DNA of 64,000 nucleotides from an uncultured delta proteobacterium (GTDB lineage: Bacteria; Desulfobacterota; Desulfobacteria; Desulfobacterales; Desulfosalsimonadaceae), in the NCBI GenBank assembly GCA_963826785.1, contig CAWGYD010000001.1, positions 224,001 through 288,000 of the forward strand. Direction: 5' to 3'. Position 1 is the first letter of the stretch. Each line of letters begins with the position of its first letter. Position numbers and translations under genes: made by a program. Below are positions 39,732 through 64,000 of this stretch, in pieces. Under the pieces are notes generated by a model. The model had not been told where the DNA came from and made no database searches. It saw only the letters and a program-made list of their open reading frames with translations.

Positions 39732-40566
39732 TTATTCGACCGAAATTTCGGCATCTTCGATGATGACCGGGTATTTGAGCCCGAATCCGAAATCCCGGTC
39801 CACGGAAACAGTGCCGTTGATCAGGACCGTATCTCCAACCTTTGCCGTACCGGTCGTCGTGACGATCAGGTCGTTGGCGCCTTCCTCGCCGGTGCCGTCC
39901 TGCACGTGGAGCCAGTTTTTTCCCATGATATCTGCGGTGAATTTGACCACCCGGGCCCGGATCTTTACTTTTTTTCCGGCCAGGCTTTCCCGCTGGGTGA
40001 TAATTTCAGACACCGTCTGCCCGCCTTGTGCCTTTTGAATGGACTCCTGCTTCAATCCCGGCATCCGGGGCCGCTCCGCCCATCATGGGCGAGGGTGTCA
40101 TCTGCCCGTCCGCCGGCTCGCCGATGGGGGGATGTCCTTCGGGCAGCGCCGTTTCCGCCGGGTTTGCCGACGGTTCTCCTTCCTTGCGGATCTGGCCCAC
40201 AAAATAGATCATGTCAAAATCGCGGTTAAGCGTTTTGCTGTGGAAATCCGCCATGGGCATTCCGGGCGGCACCTCGACCACATCACCGGCCTTGCCGTTG
40301 AAGACGGGGACTGCCACCCAGACTTTTTTCGTACCCGTATCGATCTGGACGTAGGCGTATCTGCCGGTATCGATCTTCTCCACCACCTCTCCTTTAAATG
40401 GCTCCGACATTTCGCCGGCATTTTCCGAAGCCGGCTGATCGCTGCCGGCGGATTTCGCGGACGACTTTCCATCCGTCCCGCCGGTCACCGGGTTGCAGCC
40501 GGCAAGGATCGTCAGTGACAGAAGCGCCAGCATGCACGCCAGCCAATGGTGAGATATTCTTTTCAT
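39732..40566 (-). CDS. NrfJ-like lipoprotein with OB-fold domains, frameshifted at about 40040
   Basis: Lipobox LAGC, 'GEVVEKIDTGRYAYVQI...VWVAVP' and 'LPEGHPP'. The second frame reads 'VVKFTADIMGKNWLHVQDGTG...DFGFGLKY'. Confidence 0.65.
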
Positions 40567-40583
40567 TTTTATCATTCCTCCTT

Positions 40584-42294
40584 TTATTGGGGGTAATTTT
40601 GTGACTGATGCGCTTTTCCGTGGCATTTTAGAAAACATTGCCCCCGGAAGCGGCCGAGATCATTATATTCAAGCCGTCCCGTGTCATCGGGCATGACGAT
40701 GGTCCGATCAAAATTGATGAGATGGCTGTTGCGGATGGAATTTCCCTGCATGTAATTGATGCCGTGGGGATCATGACAGGCCGAACAGGGCGTCTTTTGA
40801 TCCACCACATGCGTCTTGTGCGGGAAGCTTTCATCATTCAGCAGGGTCGCCCGGCTGTGGCAAGTATAGCACAGGGCGTAGCTGGAGGGGGACTCTATCG
40901 TGTAATCATCGGTGACATACCGGTCGGTGAGCAGATGCGGCCAGTCCGATCCGTGGGGTCCCTTGGGTGCGGAGGGATCGCTGCTGCCATGACAGTCCGA
41001 GCAGGTGATGGTGCTGCTGACGGTATAGGGCGGCAGCAGGCTTAACACATCCGGGTTTTTTCCCCGGACTTCCACCGGGTGAAAGGAAGGATTGGCCGGA
41101 TCAAATTCCAGCCGGGTGTTGACCTGATCAATCTGCCGGGCAACGTTTAGCGTATCGACGACATTGTTGTCGCCGTGGCATTTGAAGCAGATTTCATATT
41201 CATAGCGGGCTTCGGGCAGCATCTGGCCGGCCCCGGACATGCCCGATGCCCCCCGGGTCGCCCCCGATACCCGGGAGCCGTCCATGGACGGATCGGCGTT
41301 TGCCTGGTGGGGATCGTGGCAGTCGCTGCATTCAACATGTTTTTGGACGCCCCCCGATGCGAAATTTTCGCCCGGATCGTGAACGCCCGTATAGGCATCC
41401 ACGGGATGCCGGTACCGCTTGGTGATGACCGACGCGATATCGGTGGCGGCCACCTTGCCGTCATGGCAGGCAAGGCAGTTGTCCTCTTCATACACGAAGC
41501 GCAGCAGCCGCTCGATTTTCTCCTGCAGAATGGGGCCGGTGGCAATTTTCACATCCGTTTTCGGCGACGGTCACGTAGTCGGTATTCGGCCAGAGCGTAC
41601 CGGACCGGTCCAGTACCGCAGGGGAGCGTGAATGGGAAGAGGCGTTCCAGCCCTTTTCGTCATGGCAGGTAATGCACAGGGATGATCCCGTATTGTCCAT
41701 CACCAGAAACTGGCCGAACGTGTCATCATGGGGGTCATGGCAGGTGATGCACTGCAGCACGCGATTATTTTCGAGCCGGATTTCCCGGGGGAGCGTGGAC
41801 GGATCCCTGATCTCCCGGTTCTCCAGGGAAAGTCCGGTATCGTAGACAAATGAAACCGGATGGTCATCGGACAGGTCCGTGCCCAGTCCCGAGGGCCGCT
41901 GCTCGGGCAGATACCGGATGCCGCCCCGAAAAGGGATCTCGGTTTCCCCCGCAGCGGTCGCGCCAAGCGCAATGGTGCCGTCGTGGCAGCTCAGGCACAT
42001 CCGGGAAGATCCGGTGGGCTGCCCCACGTCGGCGGTGAGGGTGGAACTGTAATAGGGGGTATAATGGCTTTCATTGACGCTGCGGTTCCACAGATACGGC
42101 ATGTTCGAGCCTTCCCGGTGGGGAATGTGGCAGAAAATGCATATCCTCTCTTCCGATGAAGCGGTAATGGCGCCGGGGCCGCTGATGGACAGGTTGTGCC
42201 GGGTCGCGCGTATGTTTCCGCCCAGGGCGGACGTGGATAAACAGCACAGGAACAGGGCGAGGCCCGCAAGTTTTTTGTTTTTCATCCGTTTCAT
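40584..42294 (-). CDS. Multiheme cytochrome c (11 CxxCH + 1 CxxxCH) with an N-terminal OmcE-like domain, frameshifted at about 41518
   Basis: Signal peptide, then RHNLS/CIFCHIPH/LWNR/CLSCHDG/DLSDDHPVSF/CITCHDPH/CITCH and CENCH. The second frame adds six more CxxCH and CFLKCH. Confidence 0.88.
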
Positions 42295-43328
42295 TTCAGG
42301 GCATCTTCTTTCAGGTATTTAAATACCTGGATCCGTTTATTGCTTGAATCCGACACGTAGATATAATCATTTTGATCGATGTAGATCCCGGTGGGAAGCC
42401 AGAATTCTCCGCTCCCCGAGCCGTGGTTGCCAAAGGCCATCAGCAGGCGGCCCTTCGGGTCAAACATCTGGACATTGTCGAAGAGCGCATCCACCACATA
42501 GAGATTGCCGTCGCTGTCGGCTGCCACACCCTTGGGCCTGGCAAAGGTCCCGGGCGCATCGCCCATCCGGCCAAAGGCGGTTTGAAACGCGCCTGTGCGG
42601 GAAAACACCTGGACCCGGGCATTTAGCGAGTCGGACACGATAATGTCGCCGGTGGGTGATGTGCATATGTGGGTGGGATAGTGCAGCCGGCCGTTTTGCG
42701 ACCCGCTGCCGCCAAATGATCCTTTCGGGGAAAGGGTTTTCAGGTCGTATCTGAATACCCGGGAAAGAAGCGTGTCCACCACGAGCAGTTCCGATGTCTG
42801 CTTATTGACGGCAATCCCGGTGGGCCGTTTGAACACATCGCGGCCCAGCTCCGCAACGAATGTGTCCCCGCGGTCCTTGAATATCCTGACCACGGCATCT
42901 TTCGAGTCGGTGACGTAGATCCGCCCCCCGTCATCTATGGCAATATCCACCGGGGAGGCCGGCAACGACTGTGCCGGGGAGAAGGAAGAATAGCGGTTCC
43001 CCTTTGCATCGAACACATGGACCTTCTTCAGGAAGGTATCGACAACATAAAGCCTGCCGTCGGCGTCGGATGACACGCCATAGGGGGAAACAATGGATGC
43101 CCCCGGTCTGCCGCCGATATAATCGACCAGTTTTTTAAACACCCCGGGTGCGATCCCGGCATCTTCCGGTCCGGATATGGTGTCAACAAATTCGATGCGC
43201 TTTGTCTCCGGCGGTTTCGGCCAGAAGAGATCCGCCCGCGGGCGCAGAGGTTCCGCGTGCTTGACGCATCCGGCCGCAACTGCCCATATGATCAGTGCCG
43301 CCGCGAATATAGGGATCATCCTGCGCAT
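42291..43328 (-). CDS. NHL-repeat six-bladed beta-propeller lipoprotein
   Basis: Lipobox AAGC, FWPKPPET and repeated PxGIAV/YVxD/RVQVF units. Confidence 0.9.
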   Translation of the reverse strand: MRRMIPIFAAALIIWAVAAGCVKHAEPLRPRADLFWPKPPETKRIEFVDTISGPEDAGIAPGVFKKLVDYIGGRPGASIVSPYGVSSDADGRLYVVDTFLKKVHVFDAKGNRYSSFSPAQSLPASPVDIAIDDGGRIYVTDSKDAVVRIFKDRGDTFVAELGRDVFKRPTGIAVNKQTSELLVVDTLLSRVFRYDLKTLSPKGSFGGSGSQNGRLHYPTHICTSPTGDIIVSDSLNARVQVFSRTGAFQTAFGRMGDAPGTFARPKGVAADSDGNLYVVDALFDNVQMFDPKGRLLMAFGNHGSGSGEFWLPTGIYIDQNDYIYVSDSSNKRIQVFKYLKEDALK

Positions 43329-43335
43329 GACCGGG

Positions 43336-45306
43336 CTACCACAGGCTCCGGGTGATGCCCAGGTAAATCCGCTGCTGCCGGTAGCTGTCCCCATTTTTCT
43401 TGTCCTCCTGATTGCCCAGCCGGTAGGAGAGGGTCCCTGTCCAGACCCCGTACGCCAGTTGGACGGTCGGGGCGATTTCCGTGTATACCATATCCTGATG
43501 GTCTCCGGAAACCCTGTCCCACAGACCCACCATGCTGAAAGTGCACCACCATCTGGGCGTCCAGCCGATGTTGGTCCCCAGGCTGTAAAAATCTTCCGAT
43601 TCATCGATGTCCGGAAAATCTCTGTTTCCGTAATCTCCGGAAAAATTGAAATAAAAATTTCGCAGGGGCCTGAAGTTGATGAGTTGGCGAACGCTCCGGG
43701 TGATGATGGAATTGCCGTTGCTCCGGTCCTGATCCTCATAGAAAAACTGGGTCTCCGTCCAGTCGGTGTCGAACCGGATGCGGACACTGTTGCGGGTATC
43801 ATCAATGGGATCATACAGCGATTCACCGGATATCACGTTCTGGTTGAGACGGCCGTGCGCCAGGGTGAGATAGAAAAACGACCACAGATCCAGATCGAAA
43901 CGGTAGTCCTGGCCGAAGCGGGCATCGTCCACCGAGGCATCGATCCGGTAGCTGTAGCGGATGAGCACCTCCTGACCGTCGGCGATGGAGCCCAGCAGGG
44001 AGCGGCTGATGCTCACATCGGGCCCGATCTCCTGGATCCGGTAATCGATATTTTCAGCGTAGACGGTGGCGCCGGTAATGCTGGTCACCAGGATGGATTG
44101 GCGCAAAATGTTTTCTTCCCGCAGCAGCGTTTCCTCACCGATTTTCAATACATGGGGCTCCTGGGTCGAAATGATGTCCTGGTCGCCGCTTCGTTGGGTG
44201 AGATCATAGGTGTACCCCGCGCCCAGCTCCACGTTTCCCCAGGGGATCGGCCGATTGTAGGTAAAGCCCAGGTTGCTGCGGTACAGGTCTTCGCTTCCGC
44301 CGGAAAAATCGGTAAATGCCGCCTCCCCGCCAAGATCCGTGGTCAGGCGGTCATACAGGCGATGGGTCAAACCGGCCCTCAGTGCGGTTTCCTCGTTTAC
44401 GAAGCTGTCGAAGTCGTTCCGGTTGTAATTGATGCTGTACCGGGTCAGCAGGCTTCTGCTGTGGGTCCAGAAAAGATTCTCCGAAGCCGACCAGATATCA
44501 CTGTCCGCATCGGCGTATTCGGCCCGGTTGTTGTAAAAAAGCGAGTCGAGTCTGACCCTGTTGTCATCCGTAAAAAAGAGGGTGTTGGTCAGTTCCGTGT
44601 TCAGGGCATTGGATGAAATATCGGTGCTGTCATACAGTGTCCGGGTGGTTCGGTCCGCGTCGTCGTAAAGCATTTCGAGCTGGGTAACGCTGTTTCCCGC
44701 ATTGTGACGGACATCGACCTGCAGTTCATTGCGATCTTCATCCCACCCGTAAAATCCGCTCTGGGAGGATTTCTGACTGCTGAATCCGATGGAGGCCGGC
44801 AGCGTGGGGTTGGTGAAATTCAGCCGGGTGCCCCAGGTTTCATTATCGAAATCCGTATCCTGGACGGTCGACAGATCGAGCCGGCGGGTGTTACGGTAGG
44901 CAAAGAAATCCATGGAGAACGGTTTGCGCTTCAGCAGCGTCGCCCGCGCGTCATAGGCCATAACCGATGTGTCCCTCCGCTCTGTATGGGATTGTTCAAA
45001 TATTTCCTGGCGCCACTCGGGCATGAAGGTAAAGCGGTATTCCATCAGGTTGGGATGATAAAGCCAGCCACCGGTGCGGATGGTTGCAGTCTCCAGAAAG
45101 TCATGGGTGGTGGTCTTTGTTTCCGCCTCCGGCGTTTTTAGCGTTTCATCCTCAAATTCATAGGAAGTGCCAAGCCCCAGCTTGGGCCGCTCCATGAAAA
45201 AAAATCCATTCTCCTGCGCATGGGCTGAAGTCGCCGCCGTCATCAGGGCGGCACATGACAGCATAAACAGGATCATATGGGTTACTCTATTGCGGGAAAA
45301 CATCAT
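43336..45306 (-). CDS. Outer-membrane beta-barrel (candidate porin of a porin-cytochrome conduit)
   Basis: Signal peptide ending AHA, no internal TM helices, many alternating Y/F/L-S/T/D/R strands and an aromatic C-terminal Trp. Flanked by cytochrome genes. Confidence 0.75.
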   Translation of the reverse strand: MMFSRNRVTHMILFMLSCAALMTAATSAHAQENGFFFMERPKLGLGTSYEFEDETLKTPEAETKTTTHDFLETATIRTGGWLYHPNLMEYRFTFMPEWRQEIFEQSHTERRDTSVMAYDARATLLKRKPFSMDFFAYRNTRRLDLSTVQDTDFDNETWGTRLNFTNPTLPASIGFSSQKSSQSGFYGWDEDRNELQVDVRHNAGNSVTQLEMLYDDADRTTRTLYDSTDISSNALNTELTNTLFFTDDNRVRLDSLFYNNRAEYADADSDIWSASENLFWTHSRSLLTRYSINYNRNDFDSFVNEETALRAGLTHRLYDRLTTDLGGEAAFTDFSGGSEDLYRSNLGFTYNRPIPWGNVELGAGYTYDLTQRSGDQDIISTQEPHVLKIGEETLLREENILRQSILVTSITGATVYAENIDYRIQEIGPDVSISRSLLGSIADGQEVLIRYSYRIDASVDDARFGQDYRFDLDLWSFFYLTLAHGRLNQNVISGESLYDPIDDTRNSVRIRFDTDWTETQFFYEDQDRSNGNSIITRSVRQLINFRPLRNFYFNFSGDYGNRDFPDIDESEDFYSLGTNIGWTPRWWCTFSMVGLWDRVSGDHQDMVYTEIAPTVQLAYGVWTGTLSYRLGNQEDKKNGDSYRQQRIYLGITRSLW

Positions 45307-45380
45307 CGGTTCATTTATCGCCCATGGTCTTTCAGCTTCTCACGAGATGGAAACTGCGGGTTCATCGAAATTCAAGCCGG

Positions 45381-46121
45381 CTACTCAGTCTTTTTGCAAT
45401 CCACGGGGGACAAATTTTCACCACTCGGGTCCGGCTTCAAAAAAGCCGTATGTTTTTCTTCCATGTAGTCTTTCTTCAACATAAACCGGTCTTTCCCCAG
45501 GTGGACATTGTGGCACGACAGGCACGGTTTGGGTTGATCTGCATCCTTGATGCATTTTGCAGCGCCGATTTTATTGCCTTCATTGTGGCAGCTGACGCAC
45601 AAGCGGTCCGGATCGTCATTGAGCCGAAAAGGGTACCGGCTCTGATGGGCCGCGTGGCACGCCAGGCATTTTCCCTCGGCTGAAAGCTTTTGCAGATACA
45701 GCCCCCTTTGGATCGCCCACTCGGGGGACAGGTCCTTGTGACAGGTTTGGCAGAGCTTTTGGGCCGGGGCCACCAGGGGGCCCGGCTTTCCCCCGCCGCT
45801 TCTGAAAATGCCGTCCCAGCTGTTCCCGAAAATGGGGGTGGAAAAGGCGGAGGCCCCTTCATGGCAGGCCGCGCATTTTCTTCCGATATAAGGTTTGTGA
45901 GAAACCAGGGGGCGCTCGAGCACCCCGGCGTCGGCGGTCTGCACGACCGTAGATGCCGGGGTTTGGGCTTCCAGGGGCTTGGGTTTTTCGGCGGAAATTT
46001 CCTCTTCAGGAAACAGGAAGCGAAAGGCCGCACTTTCAGGATGCTTCTGGCACCCTGGCGTCAGAAACATCAAGACGCCCGTAAAAACAGCGAGGGCAAA
46101 AATGCTTATCTGCTTATCCAT
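45381..46121 (-). CDS. Pentaheme cytochrome c lipoprotein
   Basis: Lipobox-like TPGC. Motifs CAACH, CQTCH, CLACH, CVSCH and CLSCH. Confidence 0.85.
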   Translation of the reverse strand: MDKQISIFALAVFTGVLMFLTPGCQKHPESAAFRFLFPEEEISAEKPKPLEAQTPASTVVQTADAGVLERPLVSHKPYIGRKCAACHEGASAFSTPIFGNSWDGIFRSGGGKPGPLVAPAQKLCQTCHKDLSPEWAIQRGLYLQKLSAEGKCLACHAAHQSRYPFRLNDDPDRLCVSCHNEGNKIGAAKCIKDADQPKPCLSCHNVHLGKDRFMLKKDYMEEKHTAFLKPDPSGENLSPVDCKKTE

Positions 46122-46194
46122 AAGACTCCAGTAAAATCCGTTTTCTCGCCGGAACAGCGTGCGGGTCGCAAGATATTTTCAAGTCGTCGGACCA

Positions 46195-47271
46195 TCACCG
46201 CCCTATGCTCTGGTTTTCCGGGAGCGTATCGCCGACCCATTTTCCGAATCCATAGACATTGAGTTTGCTGGATCCGAACATGCTGGTGACATAAACGAGG
46301 TACTCGATTTTAAAATTCGGGGAGGCAAATTTGGAAAAATAGCCGACATTGGCGTAATCGATGGCGATGCCGGCAGGAAGATACAGGCTGCCCGGGGCGC
46401 TGCCGGAGCCGCCGAAAAAGAGCAGCAGCCGGCTCTGATCATCAAAGATCTGCACGTTCTCAAAGGCGGCATCCACCGCATAGAGATTGTTCGCTTTATC
46501 CACCGCCAGCCCTTTGGGCCGCGCAAAACCGCCGATCTGGTCGCCGTGGAACCCGATGGTCCGGCGCAGATCACCGTCGGGGGAGAGCACCTTGACACGG
46601 AAGTTGAAGGCGTCGTTGACAAAGACCTCGCCGCCCGGCCCCACGGTGAGGTGGGAGGGTTTGAAAAAATCCCCTTTTTTCCCCACGGCCCTGATCAGGC
46701 CGCCGGTGTCCTTATCCAGGATGAACAGCTGCTCTTTATCGATATCGATCACATACACCCGGTTTCCATGCACCGCCACATCCACCGGCTTTTCAAATAT
46801 CTCCGCATTGCCGTAGGCCCTCAGAAATTCGTTGTTCCGGTTAAAGACCACCACCTGTTTTCGCTGCATGTCCGCAACGTATTTGAGGTCGTCATCTGAA
46901 ATCCAGATGCCGGAAGGATTGCCCAGGCTTCCCATTCCGCTGTCATCGATGAAGGAAAGGGTCTGATCCGCCAGATCAAGCACCACGATTTTTCGGTAGA
47001 CCCGGTCCAGGACGTAAATTTTGCCCTTTGAAGACCCCACATCATAGGGCCGCCCCAGTTTTTCATTGTCGGGTTTGCCCAGGATGAACTCCTGAAGGGC
47101 ACTTTGCTTTTTGCCCAGGTCGTGGGCGTCCGTTATGGAATGGAGAAACTGCAGCCGCGGTTCCTGGGGCAGCGGCGGGTAGTATATAGGATTTTGATGC
47201 ATCCCCTCCCTGGGCACGGAGGCGCACCCGATGAAGACGATAAACAGTGAAAACAGGAAGATCTTTTTCAT
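46195..47271 (-). CDS. NHL-repeat beta-propeller lipoprotein
   Basis: Lipobox FIGC, YYPPLPQEPRLQFL, FARPKGLAVD and ENVQIFD. Confidence 0.9.
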   Translation of the reverse strand: MKKIFLFSLFIVFIGCASVPREGMHQNPIYYPPLPQEPRLQFLHSITDAHDLGKKQSALQEFILGKPDNEKLGRPYDVGSSKGKIYVLDRVYRKIVVLDLADQTLSFIDDSGMGSLGNPSGIWISDDDLKYVADMQRKQVVVFNRNNEFLRAYGNAEIFEKPVDVAVHGNRVYVIDIDKEQLFILDKDTGGLIRAVGKKGDFFKPSHLTVGPGGEVFVNDAFNFRVKVLSPDGDLRRTIGFHGDQIGGFARPKGLAVDKANNLYAVDAAFENVQIFDDQSRLLLFFGGSGSAPGSLYLPAGIAIDYANVGYFSKFASPNFKIEYLVYVTSMFGSSKLNVYGFGKWVGDTLPENQSIGR

Positions 47272-47288: not shown

Positions 47289-47948
47289 TTATTTGTCGTG
47301 ACAGGTCAGGCAAAGGGCCGACCCTGTATTGTCCTTGATCAGCAGTTTGGTTCCCGGGACCGCCCGGGTGTTGTGAACGTCATGGCAGGATGAACATTCC
47401 ATCCGGCTTTGAAAAAGCATATCGTCATGAATGGTCCCGCTGCTGCCGACCAGGCCCGAAAGCTTGGCCAGCGGGTCGTAAAGCTCACCGTCCTGGGTGG
47501 CCAGAGAGGTGTCATAAACAAATGAAATGGGATGATCATTGCTCAGGTCGGTGCCGATCAGGACATCTCCGAACAGATAAACGGTCCCGTTTCGGATATC
47601 GCCGAAATTTTCCAGGGCCACGGTCCCGTCATGGCAGGAGAGGCAGATTTTGGAAAGCCCGTCCGGCTGACTGCTGACATTCGCATCCATGGTGGGGGAG
47701 CGGGTGCTGTTATACATGGTGTAGACCTCCGTGGACAGTTCATGATTCCACAGCGGGGCCGGAAGGGGTTTGGTGTGATGGGGCGTGTGGCAGGGCTTGC
47801 AGATTTCCCCGCTTTCGTTCCACAGATACCCGCGAAAGTCATGGGCGGATCCGACGATGGTCCCCGCCAGTGCGACAGACGAACAGACGAGCAGCAGAGA
47901 CAGTATGGCCGCCGGTATTTTTCTCTTCATCTTCAACTTTATCCGCAT
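47289..47948 (-). CDS. Tetraheme cytochrome c, OmcE-like (candidate nanowire subunit)
   Basis: AGAGGA RBS and a signal peptide ending ALA. Motifs AHDF, CKPCHTPH, PLWNH, CLSCHDG, GTDLSNDHPISF, CSSCHDVH and GSALCLTCHDK. Confidence 0.85.
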   Translation of the reverse strand: MRIKLKMKRKIPAAILSLLLVCSSVALAGTIVGSAHDFRGYLWNESGEICKPCHTPHHTKPLPAPLWNHELSTEVYTMYNSTRSPTMDANVSSQPDGLSKICLSCHDGTVALENFGDIRNGTVYLFGDVLIGTDLSNDHPISFVYDTSLATQDGELYDPLAKLSGLVGSSGTIHDDMLFQSRMECSSCHDVHNTRAVPGTKLLIKDNTGSALCLTCHDK

Positions 47949-48099: not shown

Positions 48100-49053
48100 T
48101 TACATTTGGTGACATTCCTTGCACAGGTTTTCCGGCAGCCGATGCCGGTATTTGCTGTCCGCCCCCTTGGCCCCGGGCCGATCCTCCGGGATGACCCCTT
48201 TCTGGTGGGGGTTGTGGCAGGTGATGCAGGTCATCTCGCCCTTTTCATCCAATGGGAGCCTGACCTGATATTTTTCCTCCATGTGTTGAATCCGCTTCAT
48301 TCCATCCGGGGAGGGCTTGATGCCCATGTGATCGGCATTTCCGGAATGGTTCCCGGCAATCCGGTGGCACCGGCGGCACATGGTTTCGATATTGCCGATG
48401 AACTTGACGTCCTTGAAGGTCGCATGCTTTTCGTCGGGTTTCTCTTCGTGGCAGATCAGGCAGTTTTGAATGATGATCTCGCCGTTCTCATCGATCTGGT
48501 GATGGGGGTCGAGCTTCTGGTAGTTTTGTTCGGCATGGCATTTATAGCAAAAATCCGTCCGCCTGGGATAAGGGGCGCCGCGCAGGGAATTGCGGTCAAA
48601 CAGCCGCTTTTCGCACTGCAGGAAAACGTTGTGGCAGGTGTTGCAGGTGAGCCGTCCCTCCTGCAGCGGAAAATCGGCCGGCATCCGTTTTTTCTTTTCG
48701 GGCGACGGCGCGATGTCGAAGGGGTGGATGTACTCGGCCGGGGCTTCGGCATGACAGCGGCATAACCGTCCATAATCGGCCTCGAACTTGAGCCAGGGCT
48801 GTCCGCTCCCCTTGACGGGCGTGGTTTCATGGCATTCGCTGCAATATTGTCCGGTGTAATGGATATTGGTGGCGGCCGTGACGCCTTCGTTTACAAACGT
48901 GAAGTCAGGGGCAAAGCGGGGCGCTTCTGCCGCCGCCGTCTCCGGCGATGGGCCAACGTCCGCATCTTCATGATAACTTTGCGTCGAAACGGATTGGCAG
49001 GACACCATCATCAGGCAGAAGGCCAGGGTGATGAGGCGCGTTCTCTTGAACAT
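48100..49053 (-). CDS. Multiheme cytochrome c lipoprotein (7 CxxCH + 1 CxCH; the start could be 49101)
   Basis: Lipobox-like MVSC. Motifs CSECH, CRCH, CNTCH, CYKCH, CLICH, CRRCH, CITCH and CKECH. Confidence 0.85.
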   Translation of the reverse strand: MFKRTRLITLAFCLMMVSCQSVSTQSYHEDADVGPSPETAAAEAPRFAPDFTFVNEGVTAATNIHYTGQYCSECHETTPVKGSGQPWLKFEADYGRLCRCHAEAPAEYIHPFDIAPSPEKKKRMPADFPLQEGRLTCNTCHNVFLQCEKRLFDRNSLRGAPYPRRTDFCYKCHAEQNYQKLDPHHQIDENGEIIIQNCLICHEEKPDEKHATFKDVKFIGNIETMCRRCHRIAGNHSGNADHMGIKPSPDGMKRIQHMEEKYQVRLPLDEKGEMTCITCHNPHQKGVIPEDRPGAKGADSKYRHRLPENLCKECHQM

Positions 49054-55184: not shown

Positions 55185-56370
55185 GCATCGCCTCTTTTTT
55201 CATTTTCTTGCGGGCGCGCCGGAAATCCAGCAGCTGGTGGACAAACATGAAGCCGATCACCGCCGCAATGAGTATCTGGTATACCATTTTGATCATCGAC
55301 AGGACCTTGTAATGGAATACCTCTTTTTCTGAAATTTCCTTGCGGGCCCGAACCAGGATGAGCGGTTCCTCCGCAGCTTCCTCGACCTGTATCGCCTCCT
55401 GGCTGGCCATGAGCTGGACCTTGGTCCCGTAGGCATGGACCCGGCCTTCGGCGAAGTTTGCCGTCGCACCGGGATGACAGTTCTGGATGCCCCCCTGGTT
55501 GCTGCATGTTCTGACCCGGTTTTCTTTGTGGATGGGTGAAACAGTGTCGGTTCGGGGCTGGATCTCGTGAGTGGTGTACCCCACCGGTACATGGCAGGTG
55601 ATGCAGTCGGGCGCGTTTTTGACGTCGTATTTCACCAGCGCCCAGTGAAACGTGTCCTTGAAGGTCGATACCGCCTCAAGCCCATGCCGTTTCATCTTCT
55701 GCTCATCTTCGTGGCAGCTGGTGCATAAGCGTATGATTTCGTTCTGATCTCTTCGCCGTCGCATGCGATGGGTGAAATGGGCGTAAATGGTTTGGGTCCA
55801 TTCTTTATCCGTATGGCAGCCCTGGCAGCGGGCCAGCGTTTCCATGGACAATTCCTCGCTTTTGCCCCAGAACCCGGCATAGGGGTTATACGACCGGTTG
55901 CCGTGGCAATAGGTGCATGTGGGCCGGTCCTCGGGAAACTGCTTTTCGCCGTCTGCGCCTTGTCCGTGAACGCTGTGCTGATACTTTTCCACCATGTTCT
56001 TGTGGGAAAATTCCCGGTTGGAGGAGGGGTCCTTGATATGGCACTGGGTGGAGCAATCGACTTTTTTCACCTCTTCATGCGGGATTTTATCCAGATCCGT
56101 GTGACAGCTTTTGCATTTGAGCTTTCCGTGAACGGAATGGGCAAACAGCTGGTCATTGATGTAATAGACCCTTTTCGTCCCGTTTTCGTCATAGCGCCCC
56201 AGGCCGGGGTATCGATGGCAGATCAGGCAGTTCTCCTGATCCGAGGCCGCATCGGACTGGGTAAGACCCGGTGCGGCAAAGAAGATGACGATGACAGCCG
56301 ATAGCACCGCCATTTCAAAGATCCGGCGGGTCTTGAATCCTGCCGATTTCCTTTTGCTGCCTTGCCTCAT
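55168..56370 (-). CDS. Multiheme cytochrome c with a C-terminal TM anchor (6 CxxCH + CxxxCH + CX8CH; start uncertain)
   Basis: Motifs CLICH, CKSCH, CSTQCH, CTYCH, CQGCH, CTSCH, CITCH and CSNQGGIQNCH. C-terminal hydrophobic helix followed by LDFRR. Confidence 0.88.
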   Translation of the reverse strand: MRQGSKRKSAGFKTRRIFEMAVLSAVIVIFFAAPGLTQSDAASDQENCLICHRYPGLGRYDENGTKRVYYINDQLFAHSVHGKLKCKSCHTDLDKIPHEEVKKVDCSTQCHIKDPSSNREFSHKNMVEKYQHSVHGQGADGEKQFPEDRPTCTYCHGNRSYNPYAGFWGKSEELSMETLARCQGCHTDKEWTQTIYAHFTHRMRRRRDQNEIIRLCTSCHEDEQKMKRHGLEAVSTFKDTFHWALVKYDVKNAPDCITCHVPVGYTTHEIQPRTDTVSPIHKENRVRTCSNQGGIQNCHPGATANFAEGRVHAYGTKVQLMASQEAIQVEEAAEEPLILVRARKEISEKEVFHYKVLSMIKMVYQILIAAVIGFMFVHQLLDFRRARKKMKKEAMHDPQH

Positions 56371-56428: not shown

Positions 56429-57313
56429 CTATTTTCCCGTAATACCGGCCGCCTCATCTTCGCTCATCCCGGGATGCAGCATCCGCGGGACGTGGAATTT
56501 GGTATAGTCCCTGATCATTCCGACAACTTCCGTGCTGACCAGCATATCGGTCCTTTTTTTGGAATAGCCCAGGGCTTCGAAGGGCAGCAGCGGGTCCTGT
56601 TTGCGGTGGCAGTCCTCACAGAGATACGGCTTTTCGTTGATGAATTTGTGAATGATCTTCTTGGCCTTGGACTTCTGGCGCTCGGACAGGGTTTTTTCCG
56701 TTTTCTGGTATTCTTTTGCAAATTCGATCCGGTCCGGGTTGTCCATCCGTTGGATTTTGCCATCGACCCGTTCAAAAGGGATGATTTTCGCGTGGTATCT
56801 TCCCGGGGCCACGCCTTCCTTGATGGGGCTTTCGATGATCTGACCGGTTTTTCGGTCGTACCATTTAAAGACGCCGGTTTTCTGGTCGCCCTCCAGCCGG
56901 ACATGGCATGTCTCGCAGGAGATGAAAGCCGAATGCATATTCCCGAAGGCCCGTATTTCCTTCTTTTCGTCATGGGGGATATCGCCGTGGCACTCCACGC
57001 AGGATGAACGGTTATCGGGGGCCATGTCATAATCGATGTGATGGAAATGACCCTTGATCTTCATCTCCTCCAGAACCCGGTACCCCAGGTAGTGCTTCAC
57101 CTTGTCATCGCTTTCCAGGATGATCTTTTTAAAGGACTGGGCCTCTTTTTTTTCTTCGAGCCGGGCCGTCAGTGAATCGGTCTGATCGAGCACTTCCCGC
57201 TCATGGTATTCTTCGAAAAGATGACCGAAAGTGATATTCCAGATCACGACCATGAAGAACACGGTCATGGCCATGAACGCCAGTATGTACACTTTGAATA
57301 AAAAATTTTTCAT
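56429..57313 (-). CDS. Membrane-anchored triheme cytochrome c (paralog 2)
   Basis: N-terminal TM, HFHH, then CVECH, CETCH and CEDCH. Confidence 0.85.
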   Translation of the reverse strand: MKNFLFKVYILAFMAMTVFFMVVIWNITFGHLFEEYHEREVLDQTDSLTARLEEKKEAQSFKKIILESDDKVKHYLGYRVLEEMKIKGHFHHIDYDMAPDNRSSCVECHGDIPHDEKKEIRAFGNMHSAFISCETCHVRLEGDQKTGVFKWYDRKTGQIIESPIKEGVAPGRYHAKIIPFERVDGKIQRMDNPDRIEFAKEYQKTEKTLSERQKSKAKKIIHKFINEKPYLCEDCHRKQDPLLPFEALGYSKKRTDMLVSTEVVGMIRDYTKFHVPRMLHPGMSEDEAAGITGK

Positions 57314-57328
57314 TAAATGCCCCTGTTT

Positions 57329-58150
57329 CTAATTTTCAAGGGGGGGTGCTGCAGGAGCCCCATGCGGAGGACGTATTTCATCTTCAAACCCCTCCCGTTT
57401 CATGACTTCGACATAGTATTCATAATGTTCTTCCACCATCAGCTCCTCGGAAAGGTACCCGGTCAGAAAGACGGTTCCCATGGGGAAGACGGACATTGAA
57501 AAATGGACGTTGTACCAGTGCCACAAAAACAGGAACAGGGCGGCCAGAAGCGCCTCGTCGCTGTGGGCGATCAGCGCAAAACTGATGACCTCGCCGGGCA
57601 GGATCTTCGTTGCCAGTTCCTGTCCCCACATGATGATGCCCGAAGACCCGATGATGACAATCCCCCAGAAGGGGGCCCAGTAATCGAATTTTTCCTTCCA
57701 GTTGAACTGGGTCCCCATGGGCCGCTGGTCGGTCAAAAACAACAGATATTTCAACAGGGCGAATATATCCCTGGCATCCTTCAGGCTGGGGATCAGCGGC
57801 TGCCGCAGAACGGCCTTGATCATCGAAACCGGACCCAGTTTCCCGCTTTTCTTCAAGGGCACAATCTCGCCGGTATAGAACACGTACGCCAGGTACCCGA
57901 TGTGATAGGTGAACAGAAGCAGCAGGGTGACCCCGGCAAACCGATGAATGATCGGCGCCAGGTGGATCCCGCCGAACAGGCTGTAGAGATGCGGCGCCCA
58001 GAAGGTATCATGAAACTTGAGCGGCATGCCGGTCAAAACGAGCGTGATCACACAAGAGGCCAGAATGATATGCTGCAGCCGTTGATTGACGGTAAACCGG
58101 AAAAAGTATTTCCTGCCGTCCTTGATTTTGATGACGTATTTCTTCTCCAC
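57329..58150 (-). CDS. Cytochrome b subunit (FdnI/CbcB-like), paralog 2
   Basis: GTG start. Motifs RLQHII, IHRFAG, KEKFDYWA, IAHSDEA and WHWYNVH. Confidence 0.88.
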   Translation of the reverse strand: MEKKYVIKIKDGRKYFFRFTVNQRLQHIILASCVITLVLTGMPLKFHDTFWAPHLYSLFGGIHLAPIIHRFAGVTLLLLFTYHIGYLAYVFYTGEIVPLKKSGKLGPVSMIKAVLRQPLIPSLKDARDIFALLKYLLFLTDQRPMGTQFNWKEKFDYWAPFWGIVIIGSSGIIMWGQELATKILPGEVISFALIAHSDEALLAALFLFLWHWYNVHFSMSVFPMGTVFLTGYLSEELMVEEHYEYYVEVMKREGFEDEIRPPHGAPAAPPLEN

Positions 58151-58153
58151 GGC

Positions 58154-59206
58154 CTATTCCTCCGATTTCTTTTTCCGGGAAAACAGTCTTCTGGCCAGGT
58201 CCAGAAACATGATTCCGGTCAGGGGCAGCAGGGTTCCGCCGGTCAGCATGAGAAAAAAAGCGGAAAAGTAGAATTCCGACGGACTCTTTTCTTTGTCCAG
58301 TTCCGGATGGACATCATACTCGGCCAGTTTCGGAGAGGCATTGGGATGGCAGTCCACCATCCTGCAGCTCTTGATCTTGTTTTGTTCATTGGTGATGGAG
58401 GCCGGGTTTTTATAGCTGAGCATCTGGTGGACCGATTCCCCGGTGTTGACGTGGCAGTTGAGGCAGTCCGGGATTCTTTCATCCAGGTAATTTGCGGCCT
58501 TGCCGTGAAAGGTCTTCTCATAGGAAGCCACCGCCTTGTTGGACAATTCATGCCGCGCGATGAGCTGGTCATCATCGTGGCACCGGGCGCAGACTTCGGC
58601 GATATTCTTGGGGCTTCGGATGGCGTGCAGCCGGGTCGTGATGTGGTTGTAGAACCGGAAAATGAATTCATCCTTTTTGTGGCATACCCGGCATCTTCCC
58701 AGGGCGATTTCTGAAATGCCCGGGCGCACCTTCTTGAAAAAGGAGAGCGGCCGGTACAGGGGATTGTCATGGCAATCCTTGCAGACCGGATAGTCCTCGG
58801 CATATTTTTTGGGCTTTCCATCCGCATCCACCTTGCTGTGAACACTTCTGGACAAAAATTTCGCCGCGTCCTCATGGGAAAATTTCTTTTCGCTGGTGGG
58901 TTCAATGATGTGGCACTGGGCCAGGCAGTCCACCTTTTTGACATCCTCATGGGGGATTTTCTTGATGTCCGCATGGCAGCCTTCACACTTGACGTTGGCA
59001 TGAACGCTGTTGTTGAAAACCTCTTCGTTGACAAAGAGCAGTTTCATGTCTCCATTTTCATCGATCCGGCTCAATCCCGGATACTTATGGCATAACAGAC
59101 AGTTGCCGACATCCGCCGCCTGCACGGGGCCGGACAGGAGCAAAACGGCCAGCAAAACGGCGGCCGCCATGCCGGCGGCATATTCAAGACGGTATTTTTC
59201 TATCAT
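58154..59206 (-). CDS. Multiheme cytochrome c with a C-terminal TM anchor (6 CxxCH + CxxxCH + CX4CH)
   Basis: Signal peptide ending VQA. Motifs CLLCH, CEGCH, CLAQCH, CKDCH, CRVCH, CARCH, CLNCH and CRMVDCH. C-terminal helix followed by LDLARR. Confidence 0.88.
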   Translation of the reverse strand: MIEKYRLEYAAGMAAAVLLAVLLLSGPVQAADVGNCLLCHKYPGLSRIDENGDMKLLFVNEEVFNNSVHANVKCEGCHADIKKIPHEDVKKVDCLAQCHIIEPTSEKKFSHEDAAKFLSRSVHSKVDADGKPKKYAEDYPVCKDCHDNPLYRPLSFFKKVRPGISEIALGRCRVCHKKDEFIFRFYNHITTRLHAIRSPKNIAEVCARCHDDDQLIARHELSNKAVASYEKTFHGKAANYLDERIPDCLNCHVNTGESVHQMLSYKNPASITNEQNKIKSCRMVDCHPNASPKLAEYDVHPELDKEKSPSEFYFSAFFLMLTGGTLLPLTGIMFLDLARRLFSRKKKSEE

Positions 59207-59274
59207 TTTGAGAATCTGCTTGCCCTCCTCGTTTAGATGATCCGACCCATCGCGCCATGCGCTCCAAAAGCCTT

Positions 59275-61856
59275 CTATTCCGGCCGCCTGCCCTCGAGCA
59301 TCTCTCTTTTGGCAGGCGAGTGAAAGTACGTGTAGCGCCAGATGGCGGTTTCGCCATGACAGTCGATGCAGACCGCCTTGTCGCTGGATGTCCGCAGAAA
59401 ACTGGTGTCGGCATTACCCTCGGTGTTTTTGCCCGGGCCTTTTTGCCTGACCCGGTGGTCCCACATGAAGAAAGAATGGCAGGAAGAACATGACAGATCG
59501 CCGACATGGCTTTCTTTCCAGCCGCTGTCAAACAGCTTGATATGATTCGCGGGCAGGGCATGGGAGCGCATGATGTTATTCATGAGCTGTCCGGGCGGAT
59601 GTTCCGCCACCGCCGGGATCTTTTTTTCCGCGATTTGCCCTTTGGAATGGCAGCCCGTACACAGGCCGTTCATGGGATGCTGATGTTCACCTGAAGGGCC
59701 ATAAGCCCTGGCCCACAGCAGATGTTTTTTATCACTGTGATGGGCGGCATGGCACGCCCCGCACGGTCCAGATTCGGCCACCGTCTGCCCCTGCTGATTT
59801 GTCGCGGCGGGCGCGGTCACGAACAGGTCGTGGTCGGTTCCGGTCAGAAGTGCGGTATCTTCGTGGCAGACCACGCAAAGGTCCGGGGAAGGGGAGGCCG
59901 GTTTTCTCAGGAAACTGGTTTTCGCATTCCCCTCAATGTTTTTGACCGCTGAACCCTCTGCCGGTGAGGGCCGCGCAGGCATTGCCGTCTTCGGGTTTCC
60001 GGACGACCAGATATGGGGATCATGGCAGGTGCGGCACCTGATGATGTCGCCGTTTTCTCTGCCGCCCTCCGGGTTGAACAGGGGCAGCAGTCCACTGACG
60101 CTTGCGGACGGCGGGATTTGCGGCCCCTTAGAGACGACATCGACCGGATGATCGTTTTCTCCCGCCCGTTTTTCTTTTGCCGGGCCATTTTGGGAGTGGC
60201 ACCCGGTGCAGTATGGCCGGGCGGATTTATTTCCATCGGGGAGATTCCGGGCCCACAGGGTTTTATCCAGGGCGTTGTGCGGGATATGGCACGCGCCGCA
60301 GGGCCCGGCGACTTGCGCGGTAAAGCCCTGGATGTTGGTCGCCTCCGGTGCGGTCAATGCCAGGTTGTGATCAAATGACAGCAGCTGCTCTTTATCCCGG
60401 TGGCATGAAACGCACAGCGCCGATGTCTTGCTGGCGGATATCCTTAAAAAACTGTTGGCGGCGTCTCCTTCGGCGTCTTTTCCGCCCCTGACGGTCCGGT
60501 GCGGCCGGATCCCATTGATGAAGGTTGTGGCAGGTGGCGCACTGGACCGTGCCGCCGGCCCGGGGGTGGCCGTCTTTGGCAAAAACCGGAAGTTTATCCG
60601 TGAGCCCGGGCCGGGAAGGTTTCGGGTCCGTTTTTGAAACCGGACCCATATCGATGGGGTGGGAATATTTGCCGATGCCCTTGATCTTGTCTGTTTTTGT
60701 TTCACCGTGGCAGGACAGGCAGGTCCGGGAGGCCGGGTTGCCGGGCCCGAGCTTCCGGGCCCAGAGCCGGTATCCGGCCGAATTGTGGGGGATATGGCAG
60801 GCCCCGCACGGCCCGGATTCGGACAGCGGCTGTCCTTTCAGATTGGTTTCTTCGGGCAGGGTCATCCTCAGGTCATGCTGGGTTTTTACGATGCTTCGTT
60901 CCTTGTGGCAGGTCATGCAGAGCTGTGAATCGCGGTTATCCATCAGGGTTAAATTGCGTCCTTTCGCCCCGTGGACCCGGTGGCAGGTCTGGCAGGTGAC
61001 CGTATCTTTTTTTTCTGCTTCGACGGCCCCCAGCGCAAACAGCCTGTCCGGGATCTTGAGTTTATCCGTGTGCACCGGGTGGCTGTGGGTGCGCGTAAAG
61101 TCGGCTTCATTCACATGGCAGGTCTCGCACAGCCCGGAATCGATATTGCCGAGGCGAAGAAAGGACATGGGGCCGGGTATGGCTTCCTCGAGGGGGGTTG
61201 AAGGCTTTGCCGTTTCCCCGCTGTGCGGCGAATGGCACGTACCGCAGTAGATTTCGTCCTTGTTGCTCAAGGTCAGCGCATCCGGGATCTTCACATTCTC
61301 GGATGGCTTTTTGAAGGTGGTGTGGTTGTTTCCTTTCCACACCACATGGCGCGAATCGAGAACATAGCCGTCATGGCAGCTGTAACAGATCTCTTCGGAG
61401 CTGACGATCCCCTGGGTGTCTTTCATCAAGACATTTCCCGGCTGAAATTCGATCAACGTCTCCCGGTTGGTTCTAAACACATCCAGCCACATGACATGGC
61501 ACATGGCGCATTCTTTTTTAGACGATTTTTCAAGTGCGGCCAAAGCGGGCGGTGCAGCTGACCAGAATGAGCATGCATACAACGGAAAAGATATGGAGGC
61601 CGGGGCGGCCCGACACCCCCCTAAAGCCCCCCTCGAGGGGGGAATGGGGATGGGCTTGCCCCCCAAGCGGAGAAAGCTTTAAAAATTCCCCTATGATTGG
61701 AGAAATCTTTTTGAACCCGCTTTTGAGCGGGGAAATCTTCTTGAATCCCCCTTTGAGGGGGGAATTAAAGGGGGGTGTCCCCCCGGATGGATAAAAGCCC
61801 CCCCCAATGTGAGCTGCCTTCTCAGCTATGGTGCGACAGTGTAAAAAGTGTTTCAT
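59275..61856 (-). CDS. Large multiheme cytochrome c (18 CxxCH), frameshifted at about 60490 and about 61550
   Basis: ATG 61856 overlaps the NHL stop codon (ATGA). 9 CxxCH in 60392-61530 and 9 in 59275-60430. N- and C-termini are paralogous to the 20-heme protein. Confidence 0.82.
61612..61779. repeat. REP/MITE-like palindromic composite element within the 5' part of the 18-heme gene
   Basis: Inverted ends GACACCCCCC...GGGGGGTGTC, hairpins CCCCCCTCGAGGGGGG and CCCCCTTTGAGGGGG, and internal 30-nt tandem units. 168 bp long. Confidence 0.7.
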
Positions 61857-62800
61857 TGCGCCACTTTCAACACACGTATCCGGTTGGCGCGCATTTCCAC
61901 CACGTGGAGCCGGTTTTTCGCATCGAAGGCAATCCCCACGGGGGTGGTAAACTCCCTTTTGGTGCCGTTGTCGCAGACCACCCCGATAAACCCGCCCAGA
62001 TCCGTGAACGCCTGGATGCATCCCATGAAGCTGTCCGTCACAAACACCCGTCCGGATCCGTCGACGGCCACGCCCTTGGGCTTGAACAGTTCCCCCGGGC
62101 TCACCCCCCAGGTGCCGATTTCGGTGATATAGTTGCCGTAGGGATCAAACTCCTGGATTCTTGTGTTCAAGACATCGACGACAAATATCTGGTTGAATTC
62201 GTTTACCGCCAGGATGCCGGGGTAGCGGAACTTGCCCCGCACTTCGCCGAATCCGCCCCATTCGAACATGAAGGTGCCGTCCTGCTGGTGGACCTTTATC
62301 TTGTGGTTGTCGTTGTCCGAGACATACAAAAAATTCTTGAGATCGATGGCCAGCACATCCACGGGATCGGCCGGTTTTTCGCCCGCCGACGTCTTGACCG
62401 GGAACATGTATAAAAAGGCGCCGTTTGAATCAAACACCTGGATCCGGTGATTGCCGGTGTCCGCCACAAAAACCCGACCCTGTTTTGACACATCGATGCC
62501 CATGGGGAACTGAAACTCGCCCGGCCCGCTCCCGTTTTTGCCGAAGGTGAGCCGCACGGCACCCCGGCTGTCCATCACAATGATCCGGTTATTGACGCCG
62601 TCCACAAGGTACATGTCCCCCTGCGGGCCGATGGCCAGGTCGCTCGGCTGGTCGGCGCCCGAAGGCTCAAGGGTTGCAAGAACTTCGCTGCTGACGCACT
62701 CCATGGCCGCCAGCGGGTTTGCCGGGACCAGCAGCAGAAAGACAATTGCGGCCGCAGGGACCAGAAGATCCCTGATCCTGATGTGAAAGGGGCGTTTCAT
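61853..62800 (-). CDS. NHL-repeat beta-propeller, secreted
   Basis: Signal peptide and motifs PSDLAI, FQFPMGIDV, NHRIQVFD and FKPKGVAVD. Paralog of 51590-52591. Confidence 0.9.
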   Translation of the reverse strand: MKRPFHIRIRDLLVPAAAIVFLLLVPANPLAAMECVSSEVLATLEPSGADQPSDLAIGPQGDMYLVDGVNNRIIVMDSRGAVRLTFGKNGSGPGEFQFPMGIDVSKQGRVFVADTGNHRIQVFDSNGAFLYMFPVKTSAGEKPADPVDVLAIDLKNFLYVSDNDNHKIKVHQQDGTFMFEWGGFGEVRGKFRYPGILAVNEFNQIFVVDVLNTRIQEFDPYGNYITEIGTWGVSPGELFKPKGVAVDGSGRVFVTDSFMGCIQAFTDLGGFIGVVCDNGTKREFTTPVGIAFDAKNRLHVVEMRANRIRVLKVAQ

Positions 62801-63684
62801 CGTCCGTCCTGATCCTGATTCTGGTTCTGGTCCTGTGCGTTGGATCCCATTTGATCCGATTGCTTGAACAAGTCGGGGAGATAGAATTCATCGTACTTGG
62901 TGATCATCCCCTTGATGCTCAGGTTTTCCAGATCGGTGATCCGTTTTTGGGAAAACCCCAGTTTCGTAAAATCGAGGATGCTCTTTGATGAATGGCAGGT
63001 CTGGCATTCCGGCCCCTTGGGGCGGATGTCCACGTGAAATTTTTTGGTGATCCCCCCCCGCTGTTCGGGGGTGAGCTGATCCCGGATCTTTACATAGTCC
63101 TTTGCCAGTTCCGCCTTCTGCATGTGCAGGGTGGGGGAAAGATTTGCGCCGTTTTGGTAAAAGGGGGCGATTTTTGAAAGATGATCCACCGCACGCTTCA
63201 ACTCCCCGGTTTCAGGGTCGTAGGCGGTACCGAAAAAGGGGCCTTCCGGGTGCTCCTGGATCGGTGAATACCATTTGTATACAATGGTTTCGCCTTCCTT
63301 GACGTCTAAATGGCATGTCTCACAGGCGAAGAAATTGGTGTGCATGTTCAGCATGGCCCGGATCTTCTTGGTTTTGCCGTGGGGCAGCTTGGAATGACAG
63401 ATGAAGCAAGTCGGTTGGAGCGCTTCCGGAGCCTCCGGCAGATCGGCAAAGTGATGAAAGTGCCGGTGCTCCTCCATTTTCTTTTGCTGTTTGAATTCTT
63501 TGAGGATCGGTGATTCCTTTTCCTGGAATTTTTCCACCAGCGGGATCAAAAGCCCGGGCCCGTGGCTGGAAAAGGCAAGGTGGTTGACCACGCCGCCCAG
63601 CACGAAGAGGACCATGAACCACACGAAAAACCCGATCAGGTAAACCGGCCAGGGATGTTCCTGCCGTTTGGGGTCTCTATCCAT
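62797..63684 (-). CDS. Membrane-anchored triheme cytochrome c (paralog 1)
   Basis: GGGGAGG RBS before ATG 63684. N-terminal TM, HRHFHH, then CFICH, CETCH and CQTCH. Confidence 0.85.
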   Translation of the reverse strand: MDRDPKRQEHPWPVYLIGFFVWFMVLFVLGGVVNHLAFSSHGPGLLIPLVEKFQEKESPILKEFKQQKKMEEHRHFHHFADLPEAPEALQPTCFICHSKLPHGKTKKIRAMLNMHTNFFACETCHLDVKEGETIVYKWYSPIQEHPEGPFFGTAYDPETGELKRAVDHLSKIAPFYQNGANLSPTLHMQKAELAKDYVKIRDQLTPEQRGGITKKFHVDIRPKGPECQTCHSSKSILDFTKLGFSQKRITDLENLSIKGMITKYDEFYLPDLFKQSDQMGSNAQDQNQNQDQDGR

Positions 63685-64000
63685 TGCCTCCCCCTTCCTG
63701 ATCCGCATATCCCAGTTCGGATAACAGCGACCGCATGTATTCACGCTCTTCGGGAATTTCAGACAGGTTGCGCAGGTATTCCAGGAAATGCTCTTCCAGT
63801 TGATGCTCCCGCGTGATCCTGCCTGTAAAGACCGTCCATTGGGCGGGGAATCTGCCCGGTACGAGATGCACATTGGACAGATGCCAGAACGCAACGACGA
63901 TCAGGGCCATGATGGCCTCGTCCGCATGCATGATCCTGGCCAGGTCCTGGACAAACGACGGGTCAAAGGGCCACAGCAGCGCCACATATTCCGGGAACAG
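63677..64000 (-). CDS. C-terminal part of a cytochrome b subunit, paralog 1 (5' end outside the window)
   Basis: IMHADEAIMA...WHLSNVH...FTGRITREHQLEEH matches the other two cytochrome b genes. Confidence 0.85.
   Translation of the reverse strand: MFPEYVALLWPFDPSFVQDLARIMHADEAIMALIVVAFWHLSNVHLVPGRFPAQWTVFTGRITREHQLEEHFLEYLRNLSEIPEEREYMRSLLSELGYADQEGGGNG

Follow-up and report, generated by a model that had tools for sequence, protein, structure and literature searches.

A multihaem cytochrome cluster joining three putative quinol oxidoreductase modules to an OmcE-type gene set in a probable Desulfobacterales sulfate reducer

Analysis of a 64,000-nucleotide stretch of DNA from an uncultured delta proteobacterium (assembly GCA_963826785.1, contig CAWGYD010000001.1; the whole stretch, G000:C1:224001-288000, is referred to as the window) showed a cluster of 23 genes spanning 26.9 kb, all on the minus strand, which encodes 14 c-type cytochromes and three cytochromes b and runs two genes past the window end. 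Its 5' part, referred to as the cassette, carries three paralogous modules of an 8-haem cytochrome c, a cytochrome b and a trihaem cytochrome c, and also NHL beta-propeller proteins and repeat cytochromes with 18–20 haems. Its 3' half is the minimal omcE nanowire set known from the literature. The reading that we favour, at a probability of roughly 0.55, is that electrons flow outwards from menaquinol to acceptors outside the cell, with cassette and omcE set working in series. The source genome (G000; 4.43 Mb, 11 contigs, 87.8% complete) was compared with other genomes and loci, denoted by G- and L-numbers, respectively.

The original prediction, made from the window alone, had described 21 co-directional genes; their order and common strand were recovered, but four of them, encoding the 18-, 20- and 12-haem cytochromes (c18, c20 and c12) and the last lipoprotein, do not occupy single frames. 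Its count of haem motifs held: the 12 cytochrome genes within the window contain exactly 91 CxxCH, and seven variants made up of CX3CH, CX4CH, one CX8CH (8-haem subunit of module C) and one CxCH (8-haem lipoprotein), the latter two kinds read by eye from translations. The upstream sequence, whose recovery had been proposed as a check, added genes for two 8-haem proteins, a c subunit and a further lipoprotein, and placed the cluster start at L001:4594, 2.6 kb beyond the window end; an unrelated MORN-repeat gene on the opposite strand bounds the cluster there. Genome-wide, 42 reading frames had at least two CxxCH motifs, 232 in total, and 104 of these motifs lay in the cluster, far above chance. 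No curated NCBIfam model names any cluster gene, the doubled-CXXCH domain model alone passing its cut-off.

The host genome encodes dsrA, dsrD, aprA, acetyl-CoA synthase, a formate dehydrogenase alpha subunit and CcsA, and the best named relatives of the 8-haem lipoprotein were mostly metagenome-assembled genomes titled Desulfococcus, Desulfobacteraceae or Desulfobacterales. Because of these metabolic genes and relatives, the host is probably a sulfate reducer of the Desulfobacterales.

The b/c modules and their kinship to CbcL

In each module, a four-helix cytochrome b is accompanied by two c subunits, one with 8 haems and a helix at its C-terminus, the other with three haems and a helix at its N-terminus. 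Module A comprises the 8-haem subunit (L001:2605 to ~3678, outside the window), the cytochrome b (gene start L001:2597, past the window end; 3' part 63677..64000) and the trihaem subunit (62797..63684). The corresponding genes lie at 58154..59206, 57329..58150 and 56429..57313 in module B, and at 55168..56370, 54429..55184 and 53581..54432 in module C. The cytochromes b are of the dihaem FdnI type, with four His invariant in 94 of 94 alignment rows. Natural fusions among 150 representatives joined the 8-haem subunit to cytochrome b in 46 cases, cytochrome b to the trihaem subunit in seven, and all three in two; together with the fitting helix topology, this argues for a single predicted complex of the three subunits in each module.

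For comparison with CbcL, 16 proteins with nine CxxCH motifs were recovered from 16 regions (of 20 fetched) picked for a frame of 596–652 amino acids, and most of them showed the helix pattern described for CbcL. Both domains of the six that were aligned pairwise matched the window subunits (c domain ~25% identity, E 1e-14 to 1e-23; b domain 25–38% identity), and the 8-haem subunit of module B is homologous to the c domain of these proteins. In a quick tree, the 16 rows, assigned to CbcL by architecture and without a named CbcL sequence, formed a clade of their own (SH-aLRT 100) apart from types A, B and C, which in turn formed separate deep clades, each with members from other families. The cytochromes b of the window were 69–80% identical to their orthologues in G600 but only 27–30% identical to one another. 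The His of the first CbcL helix was kept in the anchor helix of the module C 8-haem subunit and its orthologues and was absent in A and B.

Given the separate clades, the divergence of the paralogues, the domain matches and the restriction of this His to type C, the modules are, as judged from sequence, a split and extended sister family of CbcL that was triplicated long ago, and would work like CbcL without being CbcL. In place of the single CbcL polypeptide with nine CxxCH and six helices, separate genes with six CxxCH plus two variants and 1 + 4 (+1) helices were found; the FdnI-type dihaem b domain with its His ligands is present. All four His lie within the cytochrome b, contrary to CbcBA (Cbc5), in which three do and the fourth comes from the c subunit.

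In G172 and the three gammaproteobacterial loci tested, cytochrome b is missing and its slot is taken by a membrane polyferredoxin that we take to be NapH-like, Pfam having returned only 4Fe-4S domains for it. NapH is part of a quinol dehydrogenase. Gammaproteobacterial proteins of 750–780 amino acids were wrongly considered fusions of an 8-haem subunit and cytochrome b; they carry the NapH-like domain instead. The mostly gammaproteobacterial variant loci (L035-L038, L042-L053, L113; Methylococcales, Chromatiales, Candidatus Thiodiazotropha and others) are conserved and hold a large 7-8-haem protein, a possible porin of ~430 amino acids, 7-haem and 8-haem cytochromes, a 6-haem lipoprotein, a fusion or pair of the NapH-like and 8-haem proteins, a trihaem protein and an NHL-multihaem fusion. 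This variant differs from the Methylobacter cluster in the available part of PMC13322032. Loci from other families (L139-L141) carried tandem arrays of 9-13-haem cytochromes c and cytochromes b beside a 16-haem cytochrome, without the trihaem subunit.

Interspersed with the modules are the remaining cassette genes. A signal peptide-bearing NHL propeller (61853..62800; PF01436) and c18 (59275..61856) follow module A. Module C is followed by a soluble 6-haem cytochrome (52616..53557), which matches the 8-haem and trihaem subunits alike, a second propeller (51590..52591) 42% identical to the first, and c20 (49076..51593), a paralogue of c18. Two 8-haem lipoproteins that are 61% identical open and close the cassette, the first at L001:3701-4594, outside the window, and the second, with seven CxxCH and one CxCH, at 48100..49053.

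The OmcE-type set and its linkage to the cassette

The 3' half begins with a tetrahaem cytochrome (c4; 47289..47948), a candidate filament subunit, which the original prediction had called OmcE-like. That call and the call of a beta-barrel gene further downstream were both borne out. The c4 protein matched the OmcE structure 7TFS (E 8.6e-22) and 9YUQ (E 7.8e-19), the latter presumably the filament protein of D. soudanensis, and its four CxxCH and four distal His are in register with OmcE. Two NHL lipoproteins with Pfam NHL matches and with lipoboxes read by eye (46195..47271 and 42291..43328) flank a 5-haem lipoprotein (c5; 45381..46121), missing from several related clusters, and the barrel (43336..45306). 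The AlphaFold model of this 656-residue protein (pLDDT 87.4, from a 116-sequence alignment; a previous fold from three sequences was useless, with pLDDT 28) showed ~28 strands as counted from DSSP output, a small inserted beta domain and a C-terminal Trp. Its top Foldseek match was MtrB (6R2Q_B, E 9.7e-10; VIA Z 16.2), although the Pfam search gave no PF11854 (MtrB family) match.

The next gene, c12 (40584..42294), has an OmcE-like N-terminal domain, which in the intact G019 orthologue matched OmcE at E 7.5e-27. A structure prediction pairing the barrel with the C-terminal portion of c12 scored 0.28 against a mark of 0.32, without control folds, and counts neither way. The last gene encodes a lipoprotein without assigned family (39732..40566). 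Its earlier NrfJ-like label found no confirmation: Pfam and NCBIfam gave no match, and the PDB none that was convincing.

According to the available part of PMC13712944, the smallest omcE clusters always combine OmcE with a large barrel, which is termed a putative secretion pore or anchor, and with two multihaem cytochromes and two lipoproteins of the beta-propeller type. All of these occur here, with c5 and c12 as the two multihaem cytochromes (matched by type, not by one-to-one orthology with Geobacter genes), and the 3' half is therefore the minimal omcE nanowire set already known. In L146-L155 (G595, G551, G652, G705), omcE is followed by a second OmcE-like gene with five CxxCH, resembling a 5-haem OmcE-like family proposed in the same source.

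The full trihaem domain was found in 23 of 400 genomes of the phylum, 14 further genomes with weak motif matches only having been dropped. Next to it, all 23 genomes carried an NHL gene, 22 a cytochrome b, 22 an 8-haem subunit and 20 a repeat cytochrome with 12–49 haems; the missing 8-haem and repeat-cytochrome cases fall at contig ends. Four outer-membrane sets adjoin the cassette in different genomes: the omcE-type set in genomes of the source order and in L040; a 26/16-haem set (c26/c16) in L028 and G075; an MtrB/PioB and decahaem set in G160 (Pfam-confirmed), with a similar pair in G252 and G281; and a c9–porin–c7 set in G113, G323 and G372, whose 8-haem and cytochrome b subunits are 42% and 48–52% identical to those of module B.

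Among 400 genomes of the order, the barrel was found in 13, the trihaem family in 22 and both in 12, nine of these (from six families) with both on one contig; some named loci duplicate order genomes and were kept out of the counts. The hypergeometric p of this co-occurrence, 2.8e-16, overstates it because related genomes are not independent. G600 has the full order of the window with intact modules A, B and C and lacks c5 alone, while G019 and G581 lack module B. The claim of an envelope-spanning locus in the Desulfobacterales thus stands as to its parts and their linkage across families, but not as to novelty, the 3' half and single-locus conduits having been published.

Electron flow and alternative explanations

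In the proposed mechanism, the modules would act in the inner membrane as three paralogous quinol:cytochrome c oxidoreductases that oxidise menaquinol and pass electrons to the periplasm. Module homology and haem ligands are established by the alignments; menaquinol oxidation by the b subunits would follow from what is known of the family. Within the periplasm, c18, c20, the 6-haem protein and the 8-haem lipoproteins may relay electrons, with the NHL propellers as scaffolds or chaperones, as suggested by signal peptides and conserved gene order. At the surface, the barrel and two NHL lipoproteins would secrete and anchor the OmcE-type filament, with c12 as its base and point of electron entry; homology supports the identity of these parts, and filament assembly and outer-membrane crossing are putative. 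We regard c12 as the likeliest base, since it has the OmcE-like domain and is found with the barrel also in clusters without c5. The electron sink could be a partner cell, humic material or Fe(III)/Mn(IV) oxide.

Several observations weigh against outward transfer through both halves. CbcL-family proteins occur in metal reducers and metal oxidisers alike (available part of PMC6295460), so that sequence cannot fix the direction of electrons, and a look-alike cassette in Desulfurivibrio alkaliphilus (gc5, DA_2136–2141), from which expression data come, was likened to ours by order, size and haem counts and not by protein alignment. No omcE-type barrel match was obtained in 10 of the 22 genomes of the order that carry the trihaem family, and two of these 10 are single-contig genomes. 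L012 and L021 have the two halves inverted or divergent, G705 has them ~3.7 kb apart, and in G649 they are on different contigs. Intergenic gaps in the cluster are mostly below 75 bp or overlaps, and the largest, ~150–170 bp, directly precedes omcE, which makes two transcription units plausible. A crude tblastn test (3 of 100 genes broken) pointed to an enrichment of frame breaks in the cluster (p 0.019).

Electrons might instead run inwards, drawn by the filament from FeS/Fe(0), conductive particles or a partner cell and used by the b/c complexes to reduce menaquinone for sulfate reduction; we consider this unlikely, at well under half the weight of the outward reading. The same has been proposed for partners of anaerobic methanotrophic archaea (ANME), and the available parts of two papers describe CbcBA as possibly running backwards in Seep-SRB2 (PMC10553843) and CbcL/MtoC homologues in Fe(II) oxidisers (PMC6295460). 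The genome has dsrA, dsrD, aprA and acetyl-CoA synthase and only one NiFe hydrogenase large subunit was found in it, and three paralogues could divide the two directions between them. Against this, the hallmark of ANME partners, the 26-haem and 16-haem Oet genes and an OmcS-like gene, was not found genome-wide with small hidden Markov models in this 88%-complete genome, which gave one weak motif-level match, to c5. A formate dehydrogenase alpha subunit in the genome and fatty-acid genes in the window likewise speak against inward flow.

The expression data for gc5 also correspond to the Fe(III)-reducing direction. Its genes rose ~5–15-fold (log2FC 2.4–3.9) on ferrihydrite compared to nitrate, and all six listed genes by log2FC 1.4–2.0 compared to sulfur disproportionation (Extended Data Fig. 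3 source table and Table S3 of PMC12545173, available in part).

Equally unlikely in our view is that the two halves are mere neighbours and not one chain, with the cassette feeding a periplasmic reductase or a haem capacitor (c18/c20 with NHL proteins) and the omcE set building a filament that is charged by another route or serves adhesion. The cassettes without the barrel and the rearranged halves described above favour this, as does the omcE cluster of the Desulfuromonadia, which was described without inner-membrane b/c genes in the available part of PMC13712944. However, the cassette was present in 12 of the 13 barrel genomes and repeatedly abuts unrelated outer-membrane electron-transfer sets, and in gc5 the porin, outer cytochromes and b/c gene were induced together at similar levels (available part of PMC12545173).

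The frame breaks raise a further question. Five one-base insertions were placed by frame-aware alignment to orthologues: at ~61550 and 60490 in c18, ~49680 in c20, 41511 in c12 and 40041 in the last lipoprotein gene. The break at 61550 was seen in one of four alignments and in the leader sequence. No RNA run was listed as containing this DNA, and two DNA runs from one study contained it at small shares. All four genes are single-frame in G019, as are the two covered by G010 (both genomes of the same family), and c18 is intact in G019, G581 and G600. Genome-wide, the same aligner, which superseded the tblastn count, found 11 of 115 conserved genes broken, with 13 breaks in 125 kb (0.10 per kb), comprising 10 insertions and 3 deletions. 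This rate predicts 2.65 breaks in the cluster against the 5 observed (P(≥5) 0.13). An intrinsic frameshift scan found 159 shifts across the genome and 1 in the cluster. A 151-nt contig of run X1 (98% alike with 3 other differences; depth 2, one contig) lacks the base at 49682; the comparison with read contigs spanned 41001–61000 in scattered pieces, with 41511 and ~60490 uncovered and 40041 and 61550 outside. In c20, a possible compensated pair of shifts (49410 and ~49370) appeared in two of three full-length alignments and was left uncounted.

As the genes are intact in relatives and the genome-wide insertion rate matches, the insertions are likely assembly errors. Real decay of c18, c20, c12 and the last lipoprotein, with a pathway non-functional in this strain and intact in its relatives, is very improbable: five breaks in ~25.5 kb, not obviously within homopolymer runs, the tblastn enrichment and a repeat element in the c18 leader speak for it, but all five are of the genome's commonest break type, and the genome-wide rate, the intrinsic scan and the X1 contig speak against it.

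The repeat element is palindromic (61609-61779; core CCCCCCTnnAGGGGGG) and lies in frame in the c18 leader, which it lengthens; its core occurs in 320 copies genome-wide at one mismatch or fewer, and a similar sequence lies upstream of the formate dehydrogenase gene. Elsewhere in the window, a PEP synthase-like gene in two overlapping frames (25755-28341) is another probable assembly error.

Returning to outward transfer through both halves, a bolder form of it would make the cassette a widespread and so far undescribed link from the quinone pool to outer-membrane conduits that can replace one another, with types A, B and C kept side by side because they serve different potential windows or directions, and charging an OmcE nanowire via its c12 base in possibly bidirectional electroactive Desulfobacterales. 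We put this forward tentatively, as possible rather than probable. If true, one operon would do what ImcH, CbcL and CbcBA do from separate Geobacter loci, and scattered uncultured sulfate reducers of the Desulfobacterales would be nanowire-forming, possibly bidirectional electroactive bacteria. An active locus could allow a few per cent of the Desulfobacterales to respire minerals or exchange electrons with partners, with a bearing on iron-sulfur-methane coupling in sediments. The linkage of quinol oxidoreductase, periplasmic relays and OmcE secretion set across seven families names candidate links in such a chain, and the look-alike cassette in cultured D. alkaliphilus makes testing possible.

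Among the neighbouring genes, a GAF-domain sigma-54 activator (38099-39682) is convergent on the 3' end of the cluster and was for that reason not assigned as its regulator; no regulatory link was found. Scans for sigma-70 promoters gave fewer sites than shuffled sequence (4 vs. 7.1 and 6 vs. 7.5), and scans for terminators and sigma-54 sites gave none that was convincing. Two further multihaem genes lie at G000:C1:304529-309434 (L001/L002), about 14-19 kb upstream of the cluster start: a decahaem gene of the OmcA/MtrC family, which passes the cut-off of TIGR03507, and an 8-haem gene with a broken frame. In G019, G581 and G600, one or both of them have homologues that directly head the cluster; MtrB (PF11854) was not found in the source genome. 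The hopanoid genes hpnJ and hpnK (above cut-off) and an hpnI-like gene (L002:4320-7868) lie beside the decahaem gene. At ~44 kb from the cluster, ccsA and a 5-haem cytochrome gene adjoin a molybdoenzyme-like gene (G000:C1:218942-220513).

Comparison with known systems

The original prediction had not recognised the arrangement as one already described; its omcE half is, however, covered in the available part of PMC13712944. No description of the three-subunit cassette, its triplication or its omcE pairing in Desulfobacterales was found in the literature searched, which left subscription papers mostly outside; the gene order was likewise undescribed there, figures aside, and Fig. 3D/4D of PMC13712944 could include such a genome. 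In their available parts, accounts of peat (10.64898/2026.05.27.727921), Methylobacter (PMC13322032), Desulfatiglans (PMC13343851) and D. acetexigens (PMC12133095) concern other systems, and PMC11492766 does not describe this cassette.

The mtrH/cymA–mtrABC locus of Rhodoferax and the PCC3/PCC4 clusters (PMC6295460, PMC5566968, available in part) similarly reach from inner membrane to surface in one locus, but with other barrel and cytochrome families, no filament subunit and no three paralogous b/c complexes. With the Oet/osc clusters of ANME-partner sulfate reducers and Geobacter (PMC5539420 and PMC10553843, both available in part; PMC13194489), our cluster shares large multihaem cytochromes, beta-propellers, a barrel, filament candidates and Desulfobacterota hosts. 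It differs in having no 26-haem/16-haem pair, peptidyl-prolyl isomerase or OmcS-like gene, and in that its filament subunit is of OmcE type.

As described in the available part of PMC12545173, gc5 has, ordered as in our cluster, an 8-haem protein, a further 8-haem protein of the membrane and a 'CbcL-like' gene with 3 haems, and its layout matches the c9–porin–c7 arrangement of G113, G323 and G372 in order, size and haem counts. In contrast to our cluster, it is present in single copy, has cytochrome b and trihaem subunit fused, and is paired with the c9–porin–c7 set and not with the omcE set; that part of the source calls the gene CbcL-like without mention of a three-part architecture. CbcL, MtrH and MtoC (PMC9129911; PMC6295460, available in part; bioRxiv 2021.04.15.440034) have homologous multihaem c and FdnI-type dihaem b domains with the same helix order, and module C keeps their helix-1 His. 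Here, however, c and b are split into separate genes with 8 and not 9 c-haem motifs, an additional anchored trihaem subunit stands where CbcL has its last helix, and three paralogues lie in a separate part of the tree.

The omcE cluster of the Desulfuromonadia (G. sulfurreducens, 7TFS; D. soudanensis, 9YUQ; PMC13712944, available in part) is matched in its complete gene set. In contrast to it, the host here is probably a Desulfobacterales sulfate reducer, the annotated flanking genes include neither the purine/resB-ccsB/ffh context nor a glycosylation block, and 16 cassette genes directly precede the set.

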